Source: Pseudomonadota bacterium
GTDB lineage: Bacteria; Desulfobacterota; UBA8473
Length of the DNA: 62,575 nt
Direction: 5' to 3'
Assembly (NCBI GenBank): GCA_043818015.1
Contig: JBDRGH010000003.1
Location: 1 to 62,575, forward strand
The notes under the pieces are model-generated. The model did not search any database. It saw only the letters and a program-made list of their open reading frames with translations, and was not told the origin of the DNA. The position numbers were made by a program, and so were the translations under genes. Below are positions 1,268 to 22,877 of the stretch, one piece after another (position 1 is the first letter of the stretch; the number at the start of each line of letters is the position of its first letter).

Positions 1268-2068
1268 TCAGATCCACAGAGCCAAAAGACCTCCCAGCAG
1301 TCCAACTGTCCACAGCGTCCCCATTGCTGCAAGTTGTGAGTGCGTTATTTTTACCAGCTCATGGCTCAGATGATCAAGACCTCCTTTGGCCGGAGATTTC
1401 TTTTTCAGCAGTCTCCTGACCGTCACGAACGTGGTGTCTGCCAATGGCACCACCAATATCAATAAGGCCAGAAGACCGACTCTGGCATCCATGCTCATGC
1501 AAGCGACGTTGAGTCCAATGAACAAGGCTCCGCAGTCACCCATGAACACCTTGGCAGGCGGAAAGTTGAACACGAGAAAGCCGCAACAGATGCCCAGCAG
1601 AACCATAGTCTGTAGAGGATTGCCTGTCAGCAGTCCTATGAATACAAGAGCTATGATGGAGACTCCCGTGGACAGACCGTCCATGTTGTCGATCAGATTG
1701 AAGGCATTCGTCAGACCCACGATCCAGAAAACGCTCAAGACAAGAGTGAGAACGGGATGGACAAACCAATGTAGCTGCCATCCAAAAAATACCAGAAATA
1801 GAGCCGCCGCTGTTTCCGTCAACAGCTTGACTCTGGGACTCAAAGGTTTCACGTCATCAACCAGTCCCATAAACCAGATGATGAGAGAAGCCACAAACAA
1901 AGGAGATATTAAAGAATAAAAGGCAAACACAGGAAGGAATGTAATTCCTCCAGCCGTTGGGATCTTCTCCGCGTTCCACCTGTCGTCTGAAGGATAGCGA
2001 ATGGGCAACTTTGGCAAAAAAAACCTCAGCAAGAGAGCAGTAACAGCACAGGCAACCAGAGAAGTCAT
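1268..2068 (-). CDS. GT4-family polyprenyl-phosphate sugar-1-phosphate transferase (WecA/MraY-like)
   Basis: 266-aa multi-TM ORF with the family motifs GLVDDVKPLSPRVK, NAFNLIDNMDGLS and FMGDCGALFIG. It is shorter than typical family members. It starts 4 nt after the epimerase stop. Confidence 0.8.
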   Translation of the reverse strand: MTSLVACAVTALLLRFFLPKLPIRYPSDDRWNAEKIPTAGGITFLPVFAFYSLISPLFVASLIIWFMGLVDDVKPLSPRVKLLTETAAALFLVFFGWQLHWFVHPVLTLVLSVFWIVGLTNAFNLIDNMDGLSTGVSIIALVFIGLLTGNPLQTMVLLGICCGFLVFNFPPAKVFMGDCGALFIGLNVACMSMDARVGLLALLILVVPLADTTFVTVRRLLKKKSPAKGGLDHLSHELVKITHSQLAAMGTLWTVGLLGGLLALWI

Positions 2069-2071
2069 GAT

Positions 2072-3028
2072 TTACTCCTCCTTTATCGTTCTTAAGACAA
2101 TATCTTCTACTGTTTCCTTCGGACTCCATCCCAGCAAGGATTCAAGCAGACTAACATCTGCGCTTCTCTTCAAAGCATCCTCAAACAGCTCCGTCCCGTA
2201 TGCCTCTTCGTAAGGGATGAAAGTTATGGGAGACTTACTCTTTGTTGCCAGCTTAACAATCTCTGCTAATCCCAAGATGGAGACTTCTTCCTTGCCTGCT
2301 ATATTTATCACCCTGCCATTCGCCTTTTGGCAATCCATCAGCTCATACAGGATTTTGACAAATGTCTTGACATATGTAAAGGAACGAGTCTGCTCTCCAT
2401 TCCCGAAGACAGTAATAGACTCATTGGCAAATGCCTGCTTTATGAATCTTGGCAGCACCATTCCGTAAAATCCTGTCTGTCTTGGTCCAACAATGTTGAA
2501 TGGCCTAACTATCACCAAAGGCACTCTGAAGTGCTCGTGGTAGGAGAGAGCGAAAAACTCATCCACAGACTTGCTCAATCCATATCCCCAGCGGAGACTC
2601 TTGACAGGAGATCCTATAGTGCCAGGATCAGTTTCCTTCAGATCGCTCCCACCATATCCATAGACCTCTGAAGAGGATATAATGAGGGCTTTTTTCCCAT
2701 GTTGTCTGGTACTTTCTAATACGTTCTCTGTTCCTTCTATATTGGTCTTCAATGTTTTCAATGGATGCTTGAGATACTCCATTACTCCGACTACGGCAGC
2801 AAGATGGTATGTCTCGTCGTTGTTTCTGACGAGAGTATCCAGGAGACTCTTGTCAAGAACAGAGCCTTCCCACACAGACAGACTTCTATTTTTTTTGATC
2901 TGCTTTAAATTATTCCGAGATCCAGTTGAAAAGTCATCTAATATCGTCACCAGACGGCCTTGGCTCAACAGAAAGTCCGTCAGGTGCGAGCCGATGAAGC
3001 CTGCGCCACCCGTTATCAACGTCTTCAT
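2072..3028 (-). CDS. NAD-dependent sugar epimerase/dehydratase (extended SDR)
   Basis: Rossmann motif TGGAGFIGSH at the N-terminus, then SSSEVYG and YGLSK (YxxxK). Confidence 0.85.
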   Translation of the reverse strand: MKTLITGGAGFIGSHLTDFLLSQGRLVTILDDFSTGSRNNLKQIKKNRSLSVWEGSVLDKSLLDTLVRNNDETYHLAAVVGVMEYLKHPLKTLKTNIEGTENVLESTRQHGKKALIISSSEVYGYGGSDLKETDPGTIGSPVKSLRWGYGLSKSVDEFFALSYHEHFRVPLVIVRPFNIVGPRQTGFYGMVLPRFIKQAFANESITVFGNGEQTRSFTYVKTFVKILYELMDCQKANGRVINIAGKEEVSILGLAEIVKLATKSKSPITFIPYEEAYGTELFEDALKRSADVSLLESLLGWSPKETVEDIVLRTIKEE

Positions 3029-3239: not shown

Positions 3240-3878
3240 TTAAGATATTCTCTTGCCTATCTCTGAAGCTGCCTTCAACAATTTGCTCGGAACGATCCCT
3301 TCTGCCGTCTTTTTGTCTGTGGTTCTGGCCACGGTATATCCGGTATACGAAGCGGTAAAAGCACTCCATAGAGTGGCTCCCTGCCATAGGACCAACTCGA
3401 CTACCAGCCCCAAAAGCTCTGAACTCACTTCTGCGATCGTCAGGATAGCTATTAAAACTGGGGTCCCTATGGTGTACCCGATCGAAGTCTTTCCCAACAG
3501 TAGCATCATCTTCGGCCTTGCCTGCCTCACCAAAGGATCGTCTGAAAGCAGTGCAGCTTTAATGACGTCCCGACCACCTGCCTGGTCGTCATATTCAAGT
3601 TTCTTATCCTCGTAGGCTATTCTTGCCATCTCGACTTCTTTATTGTTTTTATCTTCCGCCATTTTAGCTTGAATATCCGGAGGCAGTGGCGTTTGTCCTA
3701 CCTGCTGCAAACCGCTGGTTATGCTCTGGAGTCCACTCTGAATCTTGCTTCCAGCCTCGCCACCTACAGCATCTGCAATTTCTCCTATGCCTTCCAGACC
3801 AAGAGTCAACACTTTTCCAAAAGGCAGCATCTCGACCACACCTTTTCCGATCGTTCCTAGTAACGCTTTCCAGTCCAT
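3240..3878 (-). CDS. holin-like membrane protein (resembles 3-TM GTA-type holins)
   Basis: 212-aa ORF immediately downstream of the endolysin. Hydrophobic segments IGYTIGTPVLIAILTIA and LLGLVVELVLW follow an RQARPKMM motif. Confidence 0.45.
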   Translation of the reverse strand: MDWKALLGTIGKGVVEMLPFGKVLTLGLEGIGEIADAVGGEAGSKIQSGLQSITSGLQQVGQTPLPPDIQAKMAEDKNNKEVEMARIAYEDKKLEYDDQAGGRDVIKAALLSDDPLVRQARPKMMLLLGKTSIGYTIGTPVLIAILTIAEVSSELLGLVVELVLWQGATLWSAFTASYTGYTVARTTDKKTAEGIVPSKLLKAASEIGKRIS

Positions 3879-3891
3879 AATTTACCTCCTC

Positions 3892-4323
3892 TCAAGGTTT
3901 TACTATGAGTAATCCCTTATAATTTCTTACATCAAAGTGAAGCCAGCCAACGCCATCCTCAATGCAAGTAATGTATTGAAAAATGGAGCCATCACTTCCG
4001 GTCTTACCTGCTTTAATATCCCGCCTGATCTCTTCGGCTGTAGTTTCTACAGAGACAAGATCAAGAGCCCTGCCAAATCTATGCTGGGAATAGTCTGCTC
4101 CTATTCGACAGTCAGGCGGCCTCCATCCTCTATACTGATGCTCTCCTTTCCAATACCAAGTATTAGCAATCATTTTTCCGTAACGCTGTCGTATTTTGTC
4201 TCCAGTATAGAGTGTTCGTGAGTCAAAAAGCTGCCAGATTACCCAGGGCCTATCCTTAAGAAGTCCATAGGCGACTTTAGGAATCAGTTCGTAAGACTGG
4301 AAAAACTTAGGTATATAATCCAT
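3892..4323 (-). CDS. peptidase M15 family endolysin
   Basis: Zn-ligand pattern SQHRFGRALD (H-x6-D) plus WLHFD, as in M15 D-Ala-D-Ala / L-Ala-D-Glu peptidases. 143 aa. Confidence 0.75.
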   Translation of the reverse strand: MDYIPKFFQSYELIPKVAYGLLKDRPWVIWQLFDSRTLYTGDKIRQRYGKMIANTWYWKGEHQYRGWRPPDCRIGADYSQHRFGRALDLVSVETTAEEIRRDIKAGKTGSDGSIFQYITCIEDGVGWLHFDVRNYKGLLIVKP

Positions 4324-12550: not shown

Positions 12551-14989
12551 TCAGTCTCTGCTCCTTATTAAAGATCTCATTTGTCCATCGTTCTGATAGT
12601 CTCTCCTCACCGCCCTCACTGCGATGGCGTCCAATGTTTCAGCCAGAACTTGCTGGTCCATGAAAGTAGATCCCTCCAGATGATAATGATTTTCCTGCAC
12701 AGGTCTCACAGAAGCATTCCCTTCTCTGTCGGAAAAGACGACAGGGATGCTGCCACCTCTGAGCGGAACGACAGCTTCGTCACCGCCCTCTCCGGCCCTG
12801 ATGAGCTGTCCCTGTCCATTCCCTGCTCCTCTGACGATGCCACCATATTCATAGGCTGGCGGTTTCTGGGCTGATATTTGCGCAATTTGAACAGCTCCCA
12901 TGGCCGCTGTTATGCCTGCCAAAACATAAGATATCGGAGGAGGCCAATTCCCTATAGCTTGTAAAATGCCAGCAGCAGTGTTGATGACAGCTTCCGCTAT
13001 CTTTGCCATTTTCATCACTCTGAACATCTTGTTGGCATTCTTGCTTCCTTCTACATAAAGCATCTCTGCGATGTTTGTCAGCATTGCAGCTCCTTGCTGC
13101 GCTGCCGAAATCTTCTCCTGCCATACGGCAAGAGAACTCTGTCTTTCTTTCTTAGCAATAGCTTGCGATTTTAATAAAGCTAACTTTTCCAATTGCTCCT
13201 TTGTGGCCCCGTGCTGCTTCATAAGGTCCACCTGCTTGGTATAAAAAGAGGTGATCTCTTCGATCTCCGAATCGTATTGCATCTTGATCTGCTCAAACCT
13301 GTTTGCGGAGGTCTTGAGCCTAAATTCTTCAAGCAGTTTTTGGATTTCTTTATAAGCTTCTAATTCCTTCATTCCTTGGCTTCTGAAATCCATGGCAGGG
13401 AGCATCGGCGTCTCCCAGGTGGCTGGTTTTGTTGGTTCTGCTCCTGCTGGCTTTGGACCATAGCCACCTTTTGGCATATTGGCTTTTGTAGTTATAGCCC
13501 ATTCAAGGATCTTATTTTTCCATTTCTCTATTCCCTCTGCTGCTTTTGAATAGGATATAGCAGCAGCATCCACTTTTACAATTTGACTTTCTAAGGAATT
13601 ATCAAGCACATCACTAAAGGTACGAAACTCTTCCGAAGCTCCTTTTAATTTTCGACCAGTCTCTTCTAAAAACTCTCCTGGAAATTTTTCTGCAAGCCAT
13701 GCGCCCTTTTCTAAAATCCAAGCCAATTTATCTGCAACGACTTTCATGACAGCTAAGACGGCAAACTTTACTGCTTGCCAAGCAAATTTTAAAGCCAAAA
13801 TGGGCTTGACAGCTGCAGCAGCTAGTAAGGTCATCATCACAAGAGTGTCCACCACAGCCTTCTGGATATTATCTCTGTTTTGACGGATGTAACTGGTTAA
13901 ATTCCTTAGCCCTTCTGACAGAAAATCAAAGATCCATTTTCCAGCTCCTTCGAATGCATAATAAATCTCAATGCCCGCCTCTTTCACATTACTTATGAAG
14001 ATCTTCCACCTTCCTTGGAAGGTGTCCATCATGCGTTCGTACATCTTGGCGGCTCTACCTGTTCCTTCTTGAGCCTCTATAAGCTTTTTGACAAAGCCGT
14101 CGAAATCAAGGGCTCCATCTCTGGCATATTCCGCCAGCTTCTTCATGTTGAGGCCGGCCCGTGTGCCGAACATGTCGACCGCTTGAGTGACTGTGATCCC
14201 AGCATCTCCTACCGTCTTCAATATCTCGCCAAAGGTATGAGTTTGTGGATTGACATCTTCAAACACCAGATTCATCTCTTTGAGAGCCTTCGTCACGGAA
14301 TCACCTTGCTTGGAGAGCTGTACCATGGACATACGCAGGTTAGTGCCGGCCATCGTCCCTTGCAAGCCAAGATTGACGAATTGAGCAACCGCTGCCGTAG
14401 TTTCCTCAAGCGACCAGCCAAGGGCTGCTCCTGATGTGCCGGCATATTTCATGGCCTCCGACAGTTTGTCCATCGTCAACAGGGAACTGGTGATGGCCTG
14501 AGCGTAGGTGTCCACAACCCTTTGAGATTCTTCTGCTCGTAAATTGAACTGCCTCAAGGTCGATGCCAATAGATAAGTGGCCTGCGCCATCTCTGTCGAA
14601 GTCGCACCGGCCAGCACCATGGCACTTCCGGTTGCTGCAAGAATTTGCTTGGTGTTCATGCCGGCGGAGGCAAGATCATACATGCCTTTGGCGGCCTCAG
14701 CAGCTGTGAAGGCAGTGGTCCTACCCAGTTCTCTTGCCTTGTCCCTCAGCAGATCGAGATCCCTTCCAAAAGCCTGTGCCACCGTGGCTGTCTTCATCAG
14801 CTCAAACTCAAACTTGCTTCCGACCAAGGCAGCAGCCGTGCCAATTCCAGCAATGGCAATTGCAGCCCGCTTGGCATATGTAGCTATGTCCTTAGCCCCT
14901 TGCTGGGCAATGCTCCCAACCTTGGACATGCCGCTTTTATAGCCTGAAATGTCCGCGCCGATTCTTGCAGTTAAGTGCTCAGTCGTCAT
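12551..14989 (-). CDS. tail tape measure protein
   Basis: 812 aa. TP901-type core (ELGRTTAFTAAEAAKGMYDLASAGMNTKQIL...LRQFNL), long helical and hydrophobic stretches, and a position after the G/GT chaperones. Confidence 0.9.
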   Translation of the reverse strand: MTTEHLTARIGADISGYKSGMSKVGSIAQQGAKDIATYAKRAAIAIAGIGTAAALVGSKFEFELMKTATVAQAFGRDLDLLRDKARELGRTTAFTAAEAAKGMYDLASAGMNTKQILAATGSAMVLAGATSTEMAQATYLLASTLRQFNLRAEESQRVVDTYAQAITSSLLTMDKLSEAMKYAGTSGAALGWSLEETTAAVAQFVNLGLQGTMAGTNLRMSMVQLSKQGDSVTKALKEMNLVFEDVNPQTHTFGEILKTVGDAGITVTQAVDMFGTRAGLNMKKLAEYARDGALDFDGFVKKLIEAQEGTGRAAKMYERMMDTFQGRWKIFISNVKEAGIEIYYAFEGAGKWIFDFLSEGLRNLTSYIRQNRDNIQKAVVDTLVMMTLLAAAAVKPILALKFAWQAVKFAVLAVMKVVADKLAWILEKGAWLAEKFPGEFLEETGRKLKGASEEFRTFSDVLDNSLESQIVKVDAAAISYSKAAEGIEKWKNKILEWAITTKANMPKGGYGPKPAGAEPTKPATWETPMLPAMDFRSQGMKELEAYKEIQKLLEEFRLKTSANRFEQIKMQYDSEIEEITSFYTKQVDLMKQHGATKEQLEKLALLKSQAIAKKERQSSLAVWQEKISAAQQGAAMLTNIAEMLYVEGSKNANKMFRVMKMAKIAEAVINTAAGILQAIGNWPPPISYVLAGITAAMGAVQIAQISAQKPPAYEYGGIVRGAGNGQGQLIRAGEGGDEAVVPLRGGSIPVVFSDREGNASVRPVQENHYHLEGSTFMDQQVLAETLDAIAVRAVRRDYQNDGQMRSLIRSRD

Positions 14990-15734
14990 TATGCATAGCC
15001 CTTATTGGCAAGCTTTCTGTTCTCCTCATCAGCCTTCAATTGGTTGTACTCCTCTTTGCTGCCCCTGATGTCAAAATAAATCTTATACATCCTACGCTCC
15101 CAGGAAGGAAGGCCAAGATATTTGCTATAAGGAAGGTGGAGCTCCTTGAGGCAGAACTCCAGTTCTCGATAAAACCTAGTGCAAGATTCAGGTCCGAGCT
15201 TCTCGCCTAGGATACGTCTAAAAAAGAGTCCTCCTGATCCTCCTTCCACTTGGTGAGGTCCTGGATGTCTTCAACGATTTGCATGAACTGATCCCCGGTC
15301 ATCCCCAGACCCTTCAGCACTGCAAGCTTCTGTCCTTTGTCAGCTATCTCCTCTCCCTTCTTGTTTTTGATGGGAACATCCAAGCCCTGCAGCATAATGG
15401 CGAGTCCCAGATCCTGATCATGCTTTTCTTTCGCCTCCAGATAGGCAGGATCTGAAAAATCCAAGGTTTTCACGTGCTGCCTCCTACTCAACTTCAACTG
15501 CTTTCCAACGTCACTGTTGGGCTCGACCACCTGGTTTATCACCGGCGGCTGCGGAGCCTTGCTTGTGTAAGTGTCTATCAGCTCTGAGACTCCCGTGGAG
15601 CAGATAGGAAAGACCAAAGCCTGAATCTTGCCCGCTTTGGTCACCTTGACCTTGGAAATTCCATTGGATTCAAAGATGGGACTTCCCTCCGTCAACTCTG
15701 TGATCTTTATCTCTTTCGTACCTTCTTCCTTCAT
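14989..15734 (-). CDS. tail assembly chaperone GT-like fusion (-1 frameshift product)
   Basis: ORF 14989..15249 lies in the -1 frame relative to ORF 15207..15734 and overlaps its 3' end. The slippery heptamer sits in the overlap. The stop overlaps the tape-measure ATG (TAATG). Confidence 0.65.
15207..15734 (-). CDS. tail assembly chaperone G-like
   Basis: 175-aa acidic ORF between the tail-tube and tape-measure genes. Confidence 0.65.
   Translation of the reverse strand: MKEEGTKEIKITELTEGSPIFESNGISKVKVTKAGKIQALVFPICSTGVSELIDTYTSKAPQPPVINQVVEPNSDVGKQLKLSRRQHVKTLDFSDPAYLEAKEKHDQDLGLAIMLQGLDVPIKNKKGEEIADKGQKLAVLKGLGMTGDQFMQIVEDIQDLTKWKEDQEDSFLDVS
15219..15225 (-). promoter_or_regulatory. -1 programmed frameshift slippery heptamer T TTT TTA
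   Basis: Checked codon by codon. The zero frame reads tct ttt tta gac (S F L D). The -1 frame reads ctc ttt ttt aga cgt (L F F R R), which matches ORF 14989..15249. Confidence 0.7.
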
Positions 15735-15749
15735 CTTAACTCCTCTCGT

Positions 15750-16364
15750 TTAATTAGTTCCTATTTCAGTGCAGCTACCTGTGAATGCGAAGATCTTCGT
15801 TACGCCTCCATAGACCTGCCCATTCAGACCGAGAGTCACAGCTTCCTCGCTCTCGGTTATGGTCTGCTCGTTGGGCGGAAAATACACCTCGTCCCACCTG
15901 TAGCCTAGATAGCTTGTTCCCGACCTCGACCAGAGGACCTCCACCATGAAAGCGACCTTGCCGCTGTCCGCAAAATTAGGGAGTCCGGCTGTCCACGTAC
16001 CGAGCTGCGGTATCGATGTCGTGTACGTCGCTCCCTGCCCCCTGCGGGTGTGCAGCGTGTGAGTCCTCACTATGGTGGCCCCAGAAAACCAGGTTGCCAT
16101 GGCCTCCGAACGGTCCGTGTCGGCTGTCCTTACACTAAAAGTCAACGGCAACGGCTCAAGCCTGCTGATCGACGGAGACTCTCTGTATCCTGCGTGATCG
16201 TCCGCCTTTCCTCTGTCTGAATAAAGGATCTCTTCCGTCCTCTGTCTTGCTATGGGACCAGAGAGATTGGCTTCTGTGAACAAGACCTCCAGATAATAGG
16301 TAGTGCCAGCATTGCCATGCTCTATGATCCTCAATTCTCCATCACGTGCCTGCCAAATAGTCAT
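15750..16364 (-). CDS. major tail (tube) protein, paralogue 2
   Basis: 204 aa; paralogous to 16389..16976 (YYLEVLFTEANLSGP, EPLPLTF, GYRWDEVYFPPNEQTITESEEAVTLGLNGQVYG). Positioned just upstream of the chaperones. Confidence 0.5.
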   Translation of the reverse strand: MTIWQARDGELRIIEHGNAGTTYYLEVLFTEANLSGPIARQRTEEILYSDRGKADDHAGYRESPSISRLEPLPLTFSVRTADTDRSEAMATWFSGATIVRTHTLHTRRGQGATYTTSIPQLGTWTAGLPNFADSGKVAFMVEVLWSRSGTSYLGYRWDEVYFPPNEQTITESEEAVTLGLNGQVYGGVTKIFAFTGSCTEIGTN

Positions 16365-16388: not shown

Positions 16389-16976
16389 TTATGCCAACAC
16401 ATTCTTCACCTTGGCACCAGTAGTAACCCCTGATATCCTTATTATTGTCCCATAGACCTGCCCATTCAGACTGAGAGTGATTCCGTCCTCAGCCTCTGTT
16501 ATCGTCTGCTCTCCTGGCGGAAAATACACCTCATGCCATCTATATCCCAGATCTGTTGATCCGTCCCAGACACACTCGACGTTATAGCACTTTTTGGTCG
16601 TGTCTATAAAAGGTGGATTGCTTACCCCAGACACGTTACTGGTGTCCCCTTTCGTGGTTCCCAAGGGATGCAGATTCACCTTGCCACTTCTAAACCACTC
16701 GTCGAGATAGCTGACCCCGCTCACAGTATCGTTTATCTTGCAGGACACAGTCAGCGGCAGAGGCTCCATGACCGGATCGTCCCCTCCCTGGGCATAGTGG
16801 CCGTGCGCATCCTGCACACCCCTGTCCATGACTAACCTCTCTTCCGTCTTCTTCCTCTGCACGGGAGCGCTAAAATTCGCATCCGTGAACAGTAGCTCCA
16901 GATAATAGGCTATTTCAGAAGTTGTCCCAGATCCCGAAAGCAGACGAAGAATCCCATCCTTGTGCGTTAAAAGCAT
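16389..16976 (-). CDS. major tail (tube) protein, paralogue 1
   Basis: 195 aa; shares YYLELLFTDANFSAP, EPLPLTV and GYRWHEVYFPPGEQTITEAEDGITLSLNGQVYG with the downstream copy. Confidence 0.5.
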   Translation of the reverse strand: MLLTHKDGILRLLSGSGTTSEIAYYLELLFTDANFSAPVQRKKTEERLVMDRGVQDAHGHYAQGGDDPVMEPLPLTVSCKINDTVSGVSYLDEWFRSGKVNLHPLGTTKGDTSNVSGVSNPPFIDTTKKCYNVECVWDGSTDLGYRWHEVYFPPGEQTITEAEDGITLSLNGQVYGTIIRISGVTTGAKVKNVLA

Positions 16977-17210: not shown

Positions 17211-17304
17211 CTCTTACCTCCTTATATTGACAAAAGTATCTTAATAATAAACAGCGTGCTTCCTATAATCAACAGCCACTTAAGCCAAGGAAACAGATTG
17301 AATC

Positions 17305-17550
17305 TCATGTTTTCTTTGTTCTCTCTTCCATAAGAGTTTCCAGCTTAGTTATTCTGTCAGTGTTTGCATCAGCCTTGTCTTCAATCCTATTAAATCGACC
17401 AACCCCAAGGGATAGACGATCTTTAGTATTTTCCTTATTCTCATCGAACTGATCTTTCGACACGGCTTTATTGATCTTGTAATTAAGCATCCCAAAAATG
17501 AAAACTAACAGGATGCCAATAACTGATAGGATTATGTTTTCTACCGTCAT
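17305..17550 (-). CDS. small single-pass membrane protein with coiled-coil tail
   Basis: I prefer the start at codon 10 of the track ORF: its ATG (17550-17548) overlaps the cyclase TGA (ATGA at 17547-17550, checked). One TM helix (IILSVIGILLVFIFGML), then a charged helical tail. Confidence 0.55.
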   Translation of the reverse strand: MTVENIILSVIGILLVFIFGMLNYKINKAVSKDQFDENKENTKDRLSLGVGRFNRIEDKADANTDRITKLETLMEERTKKT

Positions 17551-18134
17551 AATTCCTTTACCCGCATCGATACGCAATGAAAAGGAGAATCTAAAATATT
17601 TTTCAGAGTTCTTATGACAGATTTAGCTGGATAGCCTTTGATGTATGGTTCAAGATCCTTATATACGGACTTTGTCATGAGCAATTTGTATTGTGGAGTC
17701 TTGTCTCCATTACGAGCTTTTACCAGCCTTGCTGACACATTAAGAGCCCAACCACTGTATTCTTTAGGATCGTTATTTATTTTGATCAATGGACTTTTGT
17801 CTACTCCAAAAGTAATCCCAACGATTTTCGGCTCGACTTCTAAATAATCCGTTATCAAGTTCTGCATTTTTTCGGCAAAATGATTTGAGAACTCTTTTGC
17901 AAAATGAAACAACCTTCTGGCTGGATCAAAATCAAATAGCAATACCCAGCCATCCCCCATAAACTTATAAGGGATAAAATCATAGACAACAGACGTCTTG
18001 ATCAGATATTCCTTTATCCACATCAAAAGATTCACCCATGCCTGTACATTTGAAGACAGAATCAGACTTTTCATGATTGTAGAAGAAGAACAAATATCAA
18101 ATTGCATTACCGTATAGTTTTCTACATGTTCCAT
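17547..18134 (-). CDS. class III nucleotidyl cyclase-like protein (bare catalytic domain)
   Basis: 195 aa. YTVMQFDICSSS, YKFMGDGWVLLF, VGITFGV and GWALNVSARL fall at the positions of the class III cyclase motifs FxDIxGFT, KxxGD, RIGIHxG and GxxVNxAxR. ATG at 18134 with GGAAGGA upstream. Confidence 0.6.
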   Translation of the reverse strand: MEHVENYTVMQFDICSSSTIMKSLILSSNVQAWVNLLMWIKEYLIKTSVVYDFIPYKFMGDGWVLLFDFDPARRLFHFAKEFSNHFAEKMQNLITDYLEVEPKIVGITFGVDKSPLIKINNDPKEYSGWALNVSARLVKARNGDKTPQYKLLMTKSVYKDLEPYIKGYPAKSVIRTLKNILDSPFHCVSMRVKEL

Positions 18135-19276: not shown

Positions 19277-19687
19277 TTAGCCTCTCCTGCAGTGAAAGAC
19301 AAAGCTGAGGTCCAAGGGATCAGTCCACACGTTTATCACACCATAAGTGACCCCGCTTTCGACCAAGACGTCTTTGTTCCTCGGAATTCCTGAGACCAAC
19401 TCCTTATAGACCAAGAACCTAACATCGCCGATCTCAAGGTCACCTCCACCTAAAAAAACTTCTCTGTCGCTGAAGTTACCTTTTAAAGCGTCGACTTCTC
19501 CGTAATCGGTATATACCGAAGAAATGGACTGGCTCTCCGGATCAAAATCGTCCAATTTGCTCTCGTCGAACTTCCTGTATTTGACGGTGACGTGGTTGCT
19601 GATCGATGAATCTCTGGTCAGGTCTCCAACTATGTTTTTGATTCGCGTGAGGGATCTCGTGCTCAATAGCTGCCTTGGCTGTGCCAT
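19277..19687 (-). CDS. head-tail joining (head closure-like) hypothetical protein
   Basis: 136-aa ORF between the adaptor-like and gp10-like genes. The call rests on position only. Confidence 0.35.
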   Translation of the reverse strand: MAQPRQLLSTRSLTRIKNIVGDLTRDSSISNHVTVKYRKFDESKLDDFDPESQSISSVYTDYGEVDALKGNFSDREVFLGGGDLEIGDVRFLVYKELVSGIPRNKDVLVESGVTYGVINVWTDPLDLSFVFHCRRG

Positions 19688-21119: not shown

Positions 21120-22877
21120 TTAATGCAAGGTAAATCCCTTTTTCTCAGCTTTCTTTCTGAAGTCCAATAACCTTCTATCTATAATAAAATCTATCTTTTC
21201 GGCCTTCTTCTTAAAATCCAAAATCCTTCCTTTCCCCACAAACTCAGTCTTCCTTCCCTTTAGGACAAATCTCACTGATATCTGATATCCAGCAGTAGCC
21301 AAATAAGTGTAAGCCACAGTGTCCTCAAACTTACCGCTATCTGAGATGATGGTGCTAAACTTTACCAGAGCAGAAGTGATATCTCCTATCTTAGAAATAT
21401 TACTTATATTCATCTCGAATGTCGTTACTGCATTTATTGTGTCTCCAGCCTTTATGCCATCAAGAACAGAGAAGAAGATAGCTGCCAATTGCTGATCAAC
21501 TGCATCCACAGCTTTCGATCCATCTGCAATCTGAGCTAACATCTGGCAGGCCGCATCAATCGTATCTTCAAATGCCAAGCCCTCCGTTATCTCGGCAAGG
21601 ATCTGCAGCTTGGATGAGAGAGATTCCTTTGTCTTGAAGCCATCTGTCATCTCAGCAAGGACTTGCAGGACAGCCAAAAGGGTATCTTTTGTCCTTAAGT
21701 TATCAGTTAATGCCTCTCTGAATTGGGCAAAAGCAGTGAGCGAATCCACAAATTTCAGGCCCTCTGCTATCGCCACTTCAACTAGTATGCCGGCAACTAT
21801 TTCAACAGCTGCCAGATCTCCTGCCTTTAAGGCATCCAACAGTTGCTCTACGATTTGCAATATAGCCGATACCGAGTCCTTTAAACTAGAACCGTCGGAG
21901 ACGCTTTCCAGGATCTGCAATGTGGTTGATATCGAATCTTCTAGATCTATCGAATCTAAAACAGAAGTCTGGATCTGGACTAAGGAATGTAAAGATTCTG
22001 CAAATTCCAGACCCTCTGAGATCACCAAGGCCAGATTTTTCACAAAGGAAGAAGCATCTTTCAAGTCAGAACCGTCGGAGATGCTTTCCAAGACCTGTAA
22101 TATGGCTGAGGAAGCATCTTTCAAGTCAGAGCCATCAGAAATGCTTTCCAAGACCTGTAATATGGCTGAGGAAGCATCTTTCAAGTCAGAACCGTCCAGT
22201 ACAGACGCAGCAATCTTTACTCTCCCTGGAGAAGAATCCATCTCTTGAAGACCATCAGCTATGGAAGTGCTGAATTGTGCTGCCGCATTCAGAGCTTCTC
22301 CAGAGTTCCAGCCCTCTGTGACTGCAACCTGATAGGTCTCGCCGCCTACCAAATCTGCTGCTGACCAATCATTAAAACTTGCCCTATTCCAATAACCAAA
22401 TATACCAGCATAATTTCCTTCTGTTATATCTGCATCAGTATCCGCACATTCTGTAATACCACCAACTTCCATTAATTGAGTTGCACCATCAACTGTCAAT
22501 TTAACAGTTTGTTCACCCGCACCAGAAGGATCGGTATCTAAATTTGTCCAAGAATTATCCACCAATTTACAAAGTCTGTAGCCTTCCGCATCTGAATGAT
22601 TAACATACTGGGCAAAGTAAAAAGTCGTAGTACTGCTTGCCTGACGAGCAGTAACAGCACCGTCAGGCGTATCACCAGCTCCTTGGGCTTGTATATCTGC
22701 CTGAACCCAATGGTCAGGCCCATCCAAAACTAATGCTGTATAACGAGCGTTATTTCTATTTTGCGCTGTTTGGACTTCAGCTCTATTGCTTACTATATCA
22801 ATATCGCCAGTATCTTCAGTCCAATTAGCTCCTATCTCGCCATCATCTCTATCAAAATTGTCTGATACAGAGGCCAT
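21120..22877 (-). CDS. repeat-rich fibre-like protein (lectin-like N-domain plus about 17 copies of a 20-aa repeat)
   Basis: 585 aa. The N-terminal domain is roughly 200 aa. It is followed by a periodic x-D/E-G-x3-K/E-D-x5-LQ-I/V-L-x-E/S-I/V unit repeated through most of the protein. Confidence 0.65.
   Translation of the reverse strand: MASVSDNFDRDDGEIGANWTEDTGDIDIVSNRAEVQTAQNRNNARYTALVLDGPDHWVQADIQAQGAGDTPDGAVTARQASSTTTFYFAQYVNHSDAEGYRLCKLVDNSWTNLDTDPSGAGEQTVKLTVDGATQLMEVGGITECADTDADITEGNYAGIFGYWNRASFNDWSAADLVGGETYQVAVTEGWNSGEALNAAAQFSTSIADGLQEMDSSPGRVKIAASVLDGSDLKDASSAILQVLESISDGSDLKDASSAILQVLESISDGSDLKDASSFVKNLALVISEGLEFAESLHSLVQIQTSVLDSIDLEDSISTTLQILESVSDGSSLKDSVSAILQIVEQLLDALKAGDLAAVEIVAGILVEVAIAEGLKFVDSLTAFAQFREALTDNLRTKDTLLAVLQVLAEMTDGFKTKESLSSKLQILAEITEGLAFEDTIDAACQMLAQIADGSKAVDAVDQQLAAIFFSVLDGIKAGDTINAVTTFEMNISNISKIGDITSALVKFSTIISDSGKFEDTVAYTYLATAGYQISVRFVLKGRKTEFVGKGRILDFKKKAEKIDFIIDRRLLDFRKKAEKKGFTLH
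22051..22197. repeat. 60-bp tandem repeat, 2.4 copies
   Basis: Copies begin at 22051, 22111 and 22171. Copies 1 and 2 differ at 4 positions, all synonymous; both encode SDGSDLKDASSAILQVLESI. Confidence 0.9.

Follow-up and report, generated by a model that had tools for sequence, protein, structure and literature searches.

A predicted class III nucleotidyl cyclase coupled to miniature membrane proteins in a phage structural operon

To our knowledge, cyclic mononucleotide (cNMP) signalling in the conflict between phages and bacteria has so far been mainly a matter of bacterial defence (Pycsar, CBASS, type III CRISPR, Panoptes), and phages have figured as degraders or sponges of the signal. Pycsar is defined by the pyrimidine cyclase PycC and an effector in which a cNMP-binding domain (CNBD) is fused to a transmembrane (TM) or TIR domain (PMC11224242), the effectors being known as PycTM and PycTIR (PMC11224242, PMC13069673). 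Panoptes combines a minimal Cas10-type polymerase, mCpol, with a 2TM effector (PMC12657218, PMC12657230), and Csx23, a small membrane effector of type III CRISPR, binds cyclic tetra-adenylate (cA4) via a non-classical fold when oligomerised (PMC11014256). The cassette described here departs from this pattern: it belongs to a phage and encodes what looks like a complete cNMP synthase, joined to a pair of miniature membrane proteins. It lies on contig JBDRGH010000003.1 of a metagenome-assembled genome labelled Pseudomonadota, and the entire contig of 62,575 bp was analysed and is referred to as the window.

The cassette consists of three genes on the minus strand. The first encodes a 195-residue protein, assigned from open reading frame (ORF), profile, AlphaFold2 (AF2) model and Foldseek data as a sensor-less class III nucleotidyl cyclase domain (17547–18134). 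It is followed by the gene for an 81-residue membrane-anchored single-helix protein (17305–17550), defined by its ORF, the gene overlap, six homologues and an AF2 model, and by that for a 28-residue hydrophobic micropeptide, MRFNLFPWLKWLLIIGSTLFIIKILLSI (17222–17308), recognised from its sequence, homologues and a codon comparison. A preliminary description, made from the sequence alone, had proposed a two-gene cassette. Both of its ORFs were found where it had placed them, on the minus strand, and the pair stands; the gene number does not, since the 28-residue gene had been missed. The ATGA at 17547–17550 (TCAT on the plus strand), which it read as an overlap of the cyclase stop codon with the start codon of the 81-residue gene, is present in the sequence, and a second ATGA at 17305–17308 overlaps the stop of the 81-residue gene with the start of the 28-residue gene. 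The ATG start gives 81 residues; a 90-residue version initiated at TTG is also in the ORF list.

The three genes coincide with an island of low G+C content (17222–18134). With 35.9% G+C, compared with a window mean of 46.0% (sd 5.1%) and 48–51% in the flanks, the cassette ranks in the lowest 0.2% among windows of the same size. The cassette had been called more AT-rich than its flanks on the basis of hand counts (22/60 and 40/60); these were exact on recount, and the contrast holds for the whole cassette. The arrangement of a cyclase with two miniature membrane proteins is undescribed. Very probably it represents a real enzyme of cyclase fold with obligate membrane partners, carried on a mobile unit.

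The 195-residue protein had been matched by eye to the class III cyclase signature, with a search against PF00211 suggested as a check. Run directly, this check failed: the protein has no Pfam match at E ≤ 1, PF00211 included, and none of 11 relatives matched a Pfam cyclase model at E ≤ 10. Neither PycC nor any other cyclase model in PADLOC was matched at E ≤ 1, no significant match was found in PHROG, and single-sequence phmmer against the PDB gave none. By contrast, a family profile built from 63 members matched only class III cyclases in the PDB, the best being CyaB of Pseudomonas aeruginosa (3R5G, E = 6e-5), with the photoactivated cyclases bPAC and OaPAC at E values of about 7e-4 to 3e-3. 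The motifs quoted previously are all present, and in the profile alignments they fall on the class III motifs as proposed: FDICSS on the first metal-Asp motif (FxDIxGFT), YKFxGDGW on KxxGD, GITFG on the (R)xGIxxG strand and G(R/W)xLNVAxRL on GxxVNxAxR.

Structure prediction and Foldseek comparison, also suggested at that stage, gave the same answer. The AF2 model, computed with the family alignment as input (pLDDT 94.6, pTM 0.90), has the beta-alpha-beta-beta-alpha-beta palm fold with a seven-stranded sheet, and the top 50 Foldseek matches in the PDB are all class III cyclases (E from 1.4e-9 to 1e-7). CyaC (1WC1/2BW7) is matched at E ~1.5e-9 with a TM-score of 0.74–0.77, 0.77 being the maximum; the minimal cyclase Ma1120 and the Pycsar uridylate cyclase 8JSZ (E = 3e-8) are also among the matches. 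Over 265 aligned relatives, the residues at catalytic positions are strongly conserved: D13 (98%), K57 (97%), D61 (100%), E125 (99%), N132 (89%), R136 (100%) and K178 (Lys or Arg in 90%). At the level of the alignment, D13 and D61 coincide with the metal-binding Asp residues of CyaB and OaPAC, and N132 and R136 with the transition-state NxAxR, so that the two Asp, the Asn and the Arg named in the preliminary description all occupy catalytic positions. Position 178 falls within an LKNI motif, which we infer to be equivalent to the phosphate-binding LKGK. The protein thus looks like a catalytically competent bare catalytic domain without a sensor. In class III cyclases the Lys of KxxGD marks a purine pocket; its retention suggests a purine-type pocket and a cAMP-like product.

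Several features set the family apart. Residues C15 (in FDICSS), S16/S17, W63 (in GDGW), G110 and E125 are invariant in a family-specific manner, and there is a family-specific insertion, RNGDKTPQYK, before beta-6. Because of C15, S16/S17, W63 and G110 we regard the family as distinct and divergent; judged by fold and catalytic residues, it is a new class III family below the reach of Pfam. The phage clade is in addition altered at otherwise conserved positions (R129W, Q138V/E, G114S). These substitutions, the insertion, the residues foreign to canonical cyclases (C15, W63, E125) and the failure of PF00211 to detect the protein would also fit a cyclase fold with other or no chemistry, be it a nucleotidyltransferase, an enzyme consuming nucleoside triphosphates or an inactive scaffold. 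The membrane proteins would then be ordinary lysis or exclusion proteins (holin/antiholin-like or Imm/Sp-like) that merely travel with it. However, the metal, transition-state and phosphate-binding positions are 89–100% retained, so that an inactive scaffold is not expected, and we consider this explanation distinctly improbable.

The 81-residue partner has one N-terminal hydrophobic segment (residues ~1–22) and a charged remainder (14 Lys and Arg, 12 Asp and Glu). Its AF2 model is a single long helix (residues 3–80, pLDDT 83.5), in agreement with the earlier view of one N-terminal TM helix with a charged tail. A cluster of Lys and Arg directly follows the TM segment and none precedes it. The predicted topology is accordingly N-out/C-in, and the conserved helix should face the cytoplasm and the cyclase. 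The protein belongs to a very small family, with only six clusters among 5.8 billion sequences, whose members are single helices of 78–87 residues. Among six homologues with 42–79% identity, 24 of the 81 positions are invariant, giving the conserved motif RL..G..RF..IE.K.D.N..IT..E. No lipobox is present. Searches of Pfam, PADLOC and PHROGs gave no significant match; in particular, no CNBD, PycTM or TIR was matched in Pfam or PADLOC, and in PHROG a pilot protein (E = 0.005) and an Rz-like spanin (E = 0.05) appeared below the threshold only.

Every cluster of the small protein with enough contig sits directly after a cyclase of the phage clade, the exception being an insertion at loci L087–89. 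Searched against all cyclase family members and all ORFs of their loci, the small-protein profile found no match outside the phage clade, and none in the C-terminal extensions of the longer family members. The preliminary description had made its reading depend on whether the two genes co-occur outside this genome; they do so in at least four other phage lineages, with cyclases 52–58% identical to that of the window. The partner gene directly follows the cyclase gene in L001/L002, L085/L090 and L086, the start/stop overlap being 4 nt in the first two cases and 10 nt in L086. In L087–89, one gene is inserted between the two; it encodes a 181-residue putative lipoprotein (1292–1837 in L087, also present in L088 and L089), which has a signal peptide with an LLGC lipobox and no Pfam match. 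These three loci also repeat the final 20 codons of the 81-residue gene (2761–2820 in L087, 80% identical), ~650 nt downstream of the intact gene and after three small TM genes. This partial copy looks like a scar of recombination or insertion.

Outside this set the pair is scarce. Neither protein was matched by tblastn in 50,697 GenBank phages. A scan of IMG/VR did not find the small protein and found the cyclase at one distant locus, without the partner, and in JGI metagenomes the small protein was found on just two contigs, both already in the set. Six BFVD models match the cyclase at E ≤ 0.001; the strongest are multidomain proteins, and none of the six has the arrangement of a bare domain with a small partner. 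Phage-encoded class III cyclases are rare, and a search by exact phrases on phage-encoded adenylate cyclase found no paper in the literature library searched.

The micropeptide gene ends within the Shine–Dalgarno sequence of the next gene. Homologues occur at the same position in L085/L090, where the peptide is 79% identical and the ATGA overlap is found again, and in L087–89; it is absent from L001/L002. A comparison of the window with L090 revealed nine synonymous and six non-synonymous codon differences, with 14 of the 22 base changes at third positions, which indicates purifying selection on this frame. The other reading frames of the region are interrupted by stops.

The cyclase itself is much more widespread than its small partners. 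Ten close homologues were found, at least 218 in a profile search of a database clustered at 90%, and 524 clusters at 50% identity, mostly bacterial, in an exhaustive scan. The analysis thereby defines a family of class III cyclases of ~200 residues that is invisible to Pfam. Most members have ~205 residues and are labelled ‘hypothetical protein’ at NCBI, while many JGI entries read ‘class 3 adenylate cyclase’. Seventy-nine bacterial loci with a homologue come from Acidobacteriota, Desulfobacterota, Planctomycetota, Omnitrophota, Verrucomicrobiota, Betaproteobacteria and others. Clustering and Pfam/PADLOC analysis of the 145 immediate neighbours at these loci revealed no family that recurs as a partner; PycTM, CNBD and TIR were all absent. 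Highly diverse C-terminal extensions are found in 36 of 269 members, including zinc ribbons, winged-helix-like segments, an SH3-like module and one 6-TM domain. The latter is fused C-terminally in a cellular member, P0084, in the same order as the cyclase and TM genes of the cassette. A module of ~80 residues (YG...DVT....L.V.VSN...G.DP.....K.L...Y) is shared by the C-termini of P0050, P0073, P0083, P0085, P0089 and P0048, and P0014, P0016 and P0026 have double zinc ribbons with a winged-helix-like tail.

The stand-alone cellular homologues imply that no dedicated receptor is needed, and raise the question of a takeover of host signalling, in which the cyclase would raise cAMP (or cGMP) and reprogramme host regulons of the CRP/Vfr type, affecting metabolism and the expression of receptor and defence genes, while the membrane proteins merely localise the cyclase or function separately. 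The bare catalytic domain with its purine-type Lys57, kept in 97% of the family, would suit such a role, and there are known class III cyclases that consist of a single minimal domain and work by themselves, such as Ma1120 among the fold matches. That the cyclase is strictly paired and translationally coupled with a protein found nowhere else argues instead for a dedicated partner, and the invariance of 24 of 81 positions at 42–79% identity means that the cytoplasmic helix is conserved beyond what a passive anchor needs. We regard such a takeover as quite unlikely.

A further alternative is an anti-phage module of a temperate phage, either Pycsar-like or of the guard type as in Panoptes. The nucleotide would open the membrane effector on infection, or, conversely, hold it shut constitutively until a competitor removes the signal with a nuclease or sponge; the infected lysogen would be killed or depolarised and the competing phage excluded. 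The layout of a cyclase with a TM protein fits, and the PADLOC PycC models (PDLC02367) give weak matches to 31 of the 63 family members (best 8.3e-7), in addition to the fold match with the PycC structure 8JSZ. Variable C-terminal domains, as seen in the 36 of 269 members, are a trait common in conflict systems. Moreover, single cellular loci adjoin the defence genes pAgo, AbiU, ThsB, viperin, AIPR or Abi_alpha; the homologue at L005 lies in an accessory region between tail fibre and integrase; and the family member P0007 adjoins a genuine Pycsar. Finally, the lack of a sensor is in keeping with a constitutive mode of synthesis such as that of Panoptes (PMC12657218, PMC12657230).

The Pycsar pair near P0007 (8730–9972 in L003/L004) consists of PycTM (PF18967, E = 3e-12) followed by a BcPycC-like cyclase, which is missed by Pfam and matches 7R65 with E = 2.4e-60. 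The surrounding defence island also contains HNH, Hypoth_Ymh and AAA_15/DUF4435 genes, and P0007 is 2–3 kb away from the pair. P0007 was considered as the cyclase of this PycTM and rejected, since PycTM is followed by its own cyclase; P0007 is therefore a mere neighbour in the defence island. The profile–profile probability between the family and this cyclase, which represents clade B PycC, is negligible (1.6%).

The neighbourhood thus counts as association in location only, and no effector recurs beside the 79 cellular homologues. In the window, the cyclase has no PycC match at E ≤ 1, and its partner lacks a match to CNBD, PycTM or TIR. For these two reasons the cassette is not a Pycsar system, and the cyclase family appears to be at most a distant relative of PycC. 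Nor is it CBASS, because its fold is the palm of class III cyclases and not that of a CD-NTase; PADLOC gave no CD-NTase match for the cassette proteins or their relatives. The preliminary judgement that the pair fits neither layout is borne out. Phage_integrase is absent from the Pfam list of the 51 larger window ORFs scanned at E ≤ 1e-8, and no integrase or other lysogeny gene turned up among these. Together with the position of the cassette, described below, this makes a defence module of a temperate phage unlikely.

The window contains a co-oriented phage structural and lysis region from ~3 to 30 kb, with tape measure, portal, capsid, Mu-F-like and central fibre genes. The cassette is located between neck genes and two paralogous tube-like genes, bracketed by a head-closure homologue (19277–19687, a PHROG match to phrog_161) on one side and the chaperone and tape-measure genes on the other. 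It had been placed between a tail-terminator-like gene and tail-tube genes. The flanking genes do lie between the head-closure homologue and the chaperone and tape-measure genes; their labels found no support in profile, PDB or phage-database searches (GenBank phages, IMG/VR), which for the flanking tail genes yielded only a distant syntenic relative, L093, so that the terminator and tube labels go by position only. The tube-like genes (15750–16364 and 16389–16976, minus strand) are tandem paralogues with 43% identity to each other. The same duplication is found in L093, where one copy forms the C-terminal half of a 353-residue protein. Between the tube-like genes and the tape measure, two overlapping ORFs (15207–15734 and 14989–15249) occupy 14989–15734 on the minus strand; this interval is where phages usually encode the tail assembly chaperones that arise by programmed frameshifting.

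In L093 the tube pair, the chaperone and the tape measure are present, but no cassette lies upstream of the tube genes. None of the structural proteins of the window has a match on the other cassette-bearing contigs, which places the cassette in unrelated backbones, and across contigs its G+C content deviates from that of the host contig in both directions. The unrelated backbones with their differing insertion sites, its absence from L093 and the G+C deviation, seen in the window as a trough, support the view of the cassette as a mobile moron, and the horizontal acquisition suggested by the preliminary description is supported. It is nevertheless unlike a classical moron, as neither a promoter nor a terminator of its own could be detected and it is embedded tightly in the late operon. 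Matches to a cassette-specific promoter or terminator were no commoner than in shuffled sequence, no terminator was found on the coding strand flanking or following the cassette, and the gap to the upstream gene is only 4 nt. This lack of separate signals inside a late operon also speaks against the defence module discussed above.

In two other lineages the cassette adjoins lysis genes. In L001/L002 it is directly upstream of a small soluble protein and a Phage_lysozyme endolysin, the 82-residue partner being the sole small TM protein beside the endolysin. In L090 it is directly upstream of a small protein, an endolysin of a different type (Amidase_3), a 2-TM protein of 54 residues and a lipoprotein. 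The proteins preceding the endolysins (60 residues in L002, 65 in L090) show no similarity to each other. A run of small TM proteins follows the cassette in L087–89. The window has its own holin-like gene (3240–3878) and endolysin gene (3892–4323).

The phage region is flanked (1268–3028 and about 30000–62575) by co-oriented genes of polysaccharide or O-antigen-type biosynthesis, among them Polysacc_synt_2, epimerases, NeuB, WbqC, glycosyltransferases, Wzy_C and PIG-L, as well as four radical-SAM/B12 proteins and a WecA/MraY-like membrane protein. The window contains no tRNA. It could be a prophage in a glycan locus, a phage with a large glycan-modification cluster or a chimeric assembly. One of the 51 scanned ORFs contains an Intein_splicing domain (E = 1.7e-19). 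A 60-nt tandem repeat (22051–22196; 2.4 copies, 93% matches) within the ORF 21120–22877 on the minus strand encodes SDGSDLKDASSAILQVLESI units; the 585-residue head-region protein that contains it has many degenerate copies of the motif.

The best overall explanation of these data, which may well hold and which we put forward just short of calling it probable, is a late-expressed, membrane-linked cNMP module acting on lysis timing or exclusion. The cassette would be made late in the lytic cycle, since it sits seamlessly inside a co-oriented late structural operon. The cyclase would act as a head-to-tail dimer, as its relatives do, and make a 3',5'-cyclic mononucleotide, presumably a purine or cAMP-like one. 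The two miniature membrane proteins would be its dedicated partner at the inner membrane, where they would respond to the nucleotide as an effector or else anchor and regulate the cyclase. The resulting change in the state of the inner membrane could set the time of lysis or exclude competing phages. The preliminary description had offered abortive infection, manipulation of host cNMP signalling, exclusion and lysis timing as possible roles. The context somewhat favours a late, lysis-adjacent role over a classical role in a defence island; the specific output, control of the membrane or of lysis by a cNMP, is proposed only tentatively.

Several observations weigh against this explanation. As a single helix, the 81-residue protein has no recognisable nucleotide-binding fold. 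Cellular relatives lack a conserved partner, so the cyclase can evidently work alone, and E125 as the second base-specifying residue is ambiguous in the profile alignments. In the window, 13 kb separate the cassette from the endolysin and holin-like genes of the phage itself (3240–4323), and for this reason its 81-residue protein is not an essential holin there. Junctions of tail-fibre and lysis modules are common insertion sites of morons, so the proximity to endolysins may reflect nothing more than position.

Should the enzyme prove active, the cassette would mean that phages use a cNMP signal of their own on the host membrane, on lysis timing or on competitors, and it could also reveal a minimal nucleotide receptor. 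In the most far-reaching version, which we think unlikely, the 81-residue helix and the 28-residue peptide would be a new kind of cyclic-mononucleotide receptor or effector without a classical cNMP-binding domain, forming with the cyclase a phage-borne nucleotide-gated membrane switch. Such a switch could be an intracellular lysis clock, or a guard triggered once the signal has been removed by the nuclease or sponge of a competitor.

Among described systems, Pycsar resembles the cassette in that a class III-type cyclase adjoins a membrane protein and that a clade D PycC structure is a fold match. It differs in the partner, which here has neither a cNMP-binding domain nor a PycTM match, in the failure of the 195-residue protein with the PycC models, and in location: the cassette is within a phage structural operon and not in a defence island, and has a third gene for a micropeptide. 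With Panoptes it has in common the logic of a sensor-less, minimal palm-domain nucleotide synthase paired with a small membrane protein, which in Panoptes is the effector. However, compared by fold search only, the synthase belongs to another palm branch (the matches are class III cyclases, not Cas10/GGDEF), the partner is unrelated, and the carrier is a phage, whereas Panoptes is found in bacterial defence islands. Csx23, in which an N-terminal TM helix is joined to a helical part in the cytoplasm, offers a possible precedent for the 81-residue helix as a receptor; the likeness meant here is one of architecture, and Csx23 differs in having a folded soluble domain and in responding to cA4 from Cas10.

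Holins and antiholins, spanins and the Imm and Sp proteins of T4 are miniature membrane proteins of lysis or exclusion. Like them, the miniature membrane proteins of the cassette are encoded beside endolysins in two lineages (L001/2, L085/90) and are presumably expressed late; the cassette differs in that its partner has no significant family match and that the phage of the window has its own holin-like gene and endolysin elsewhere. The predicted C-in topology of the 81-residue protein is opposite to that of an i-spanin, and it lacks a lipobox. The closest described counterparts of the 195-residue protein are class III cyclases such as CyaC of Spirulina (1WC1), CyaB (3R5G) and Ma1120 of Mycobacterium avium (4WP8). 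They have in common with it the fold (Foldseek TM-scores of 0.6–0.77, E from 1e-9 to 1e-8), the order of the motifs and the aligned catalytic residues, and Ma1120 is likewise a bare catalytic domain, of about 165–200 residues. In contrast to them, the 195-residue protein is just 13–20% identical and below PF00211 detection, has the invariant Cys15, Trp63 and Glu125 and the insertion before beta-6 of its own family, and has its gene in the late operon of a phage, linked there to the genes of two miniature membrane proteins.

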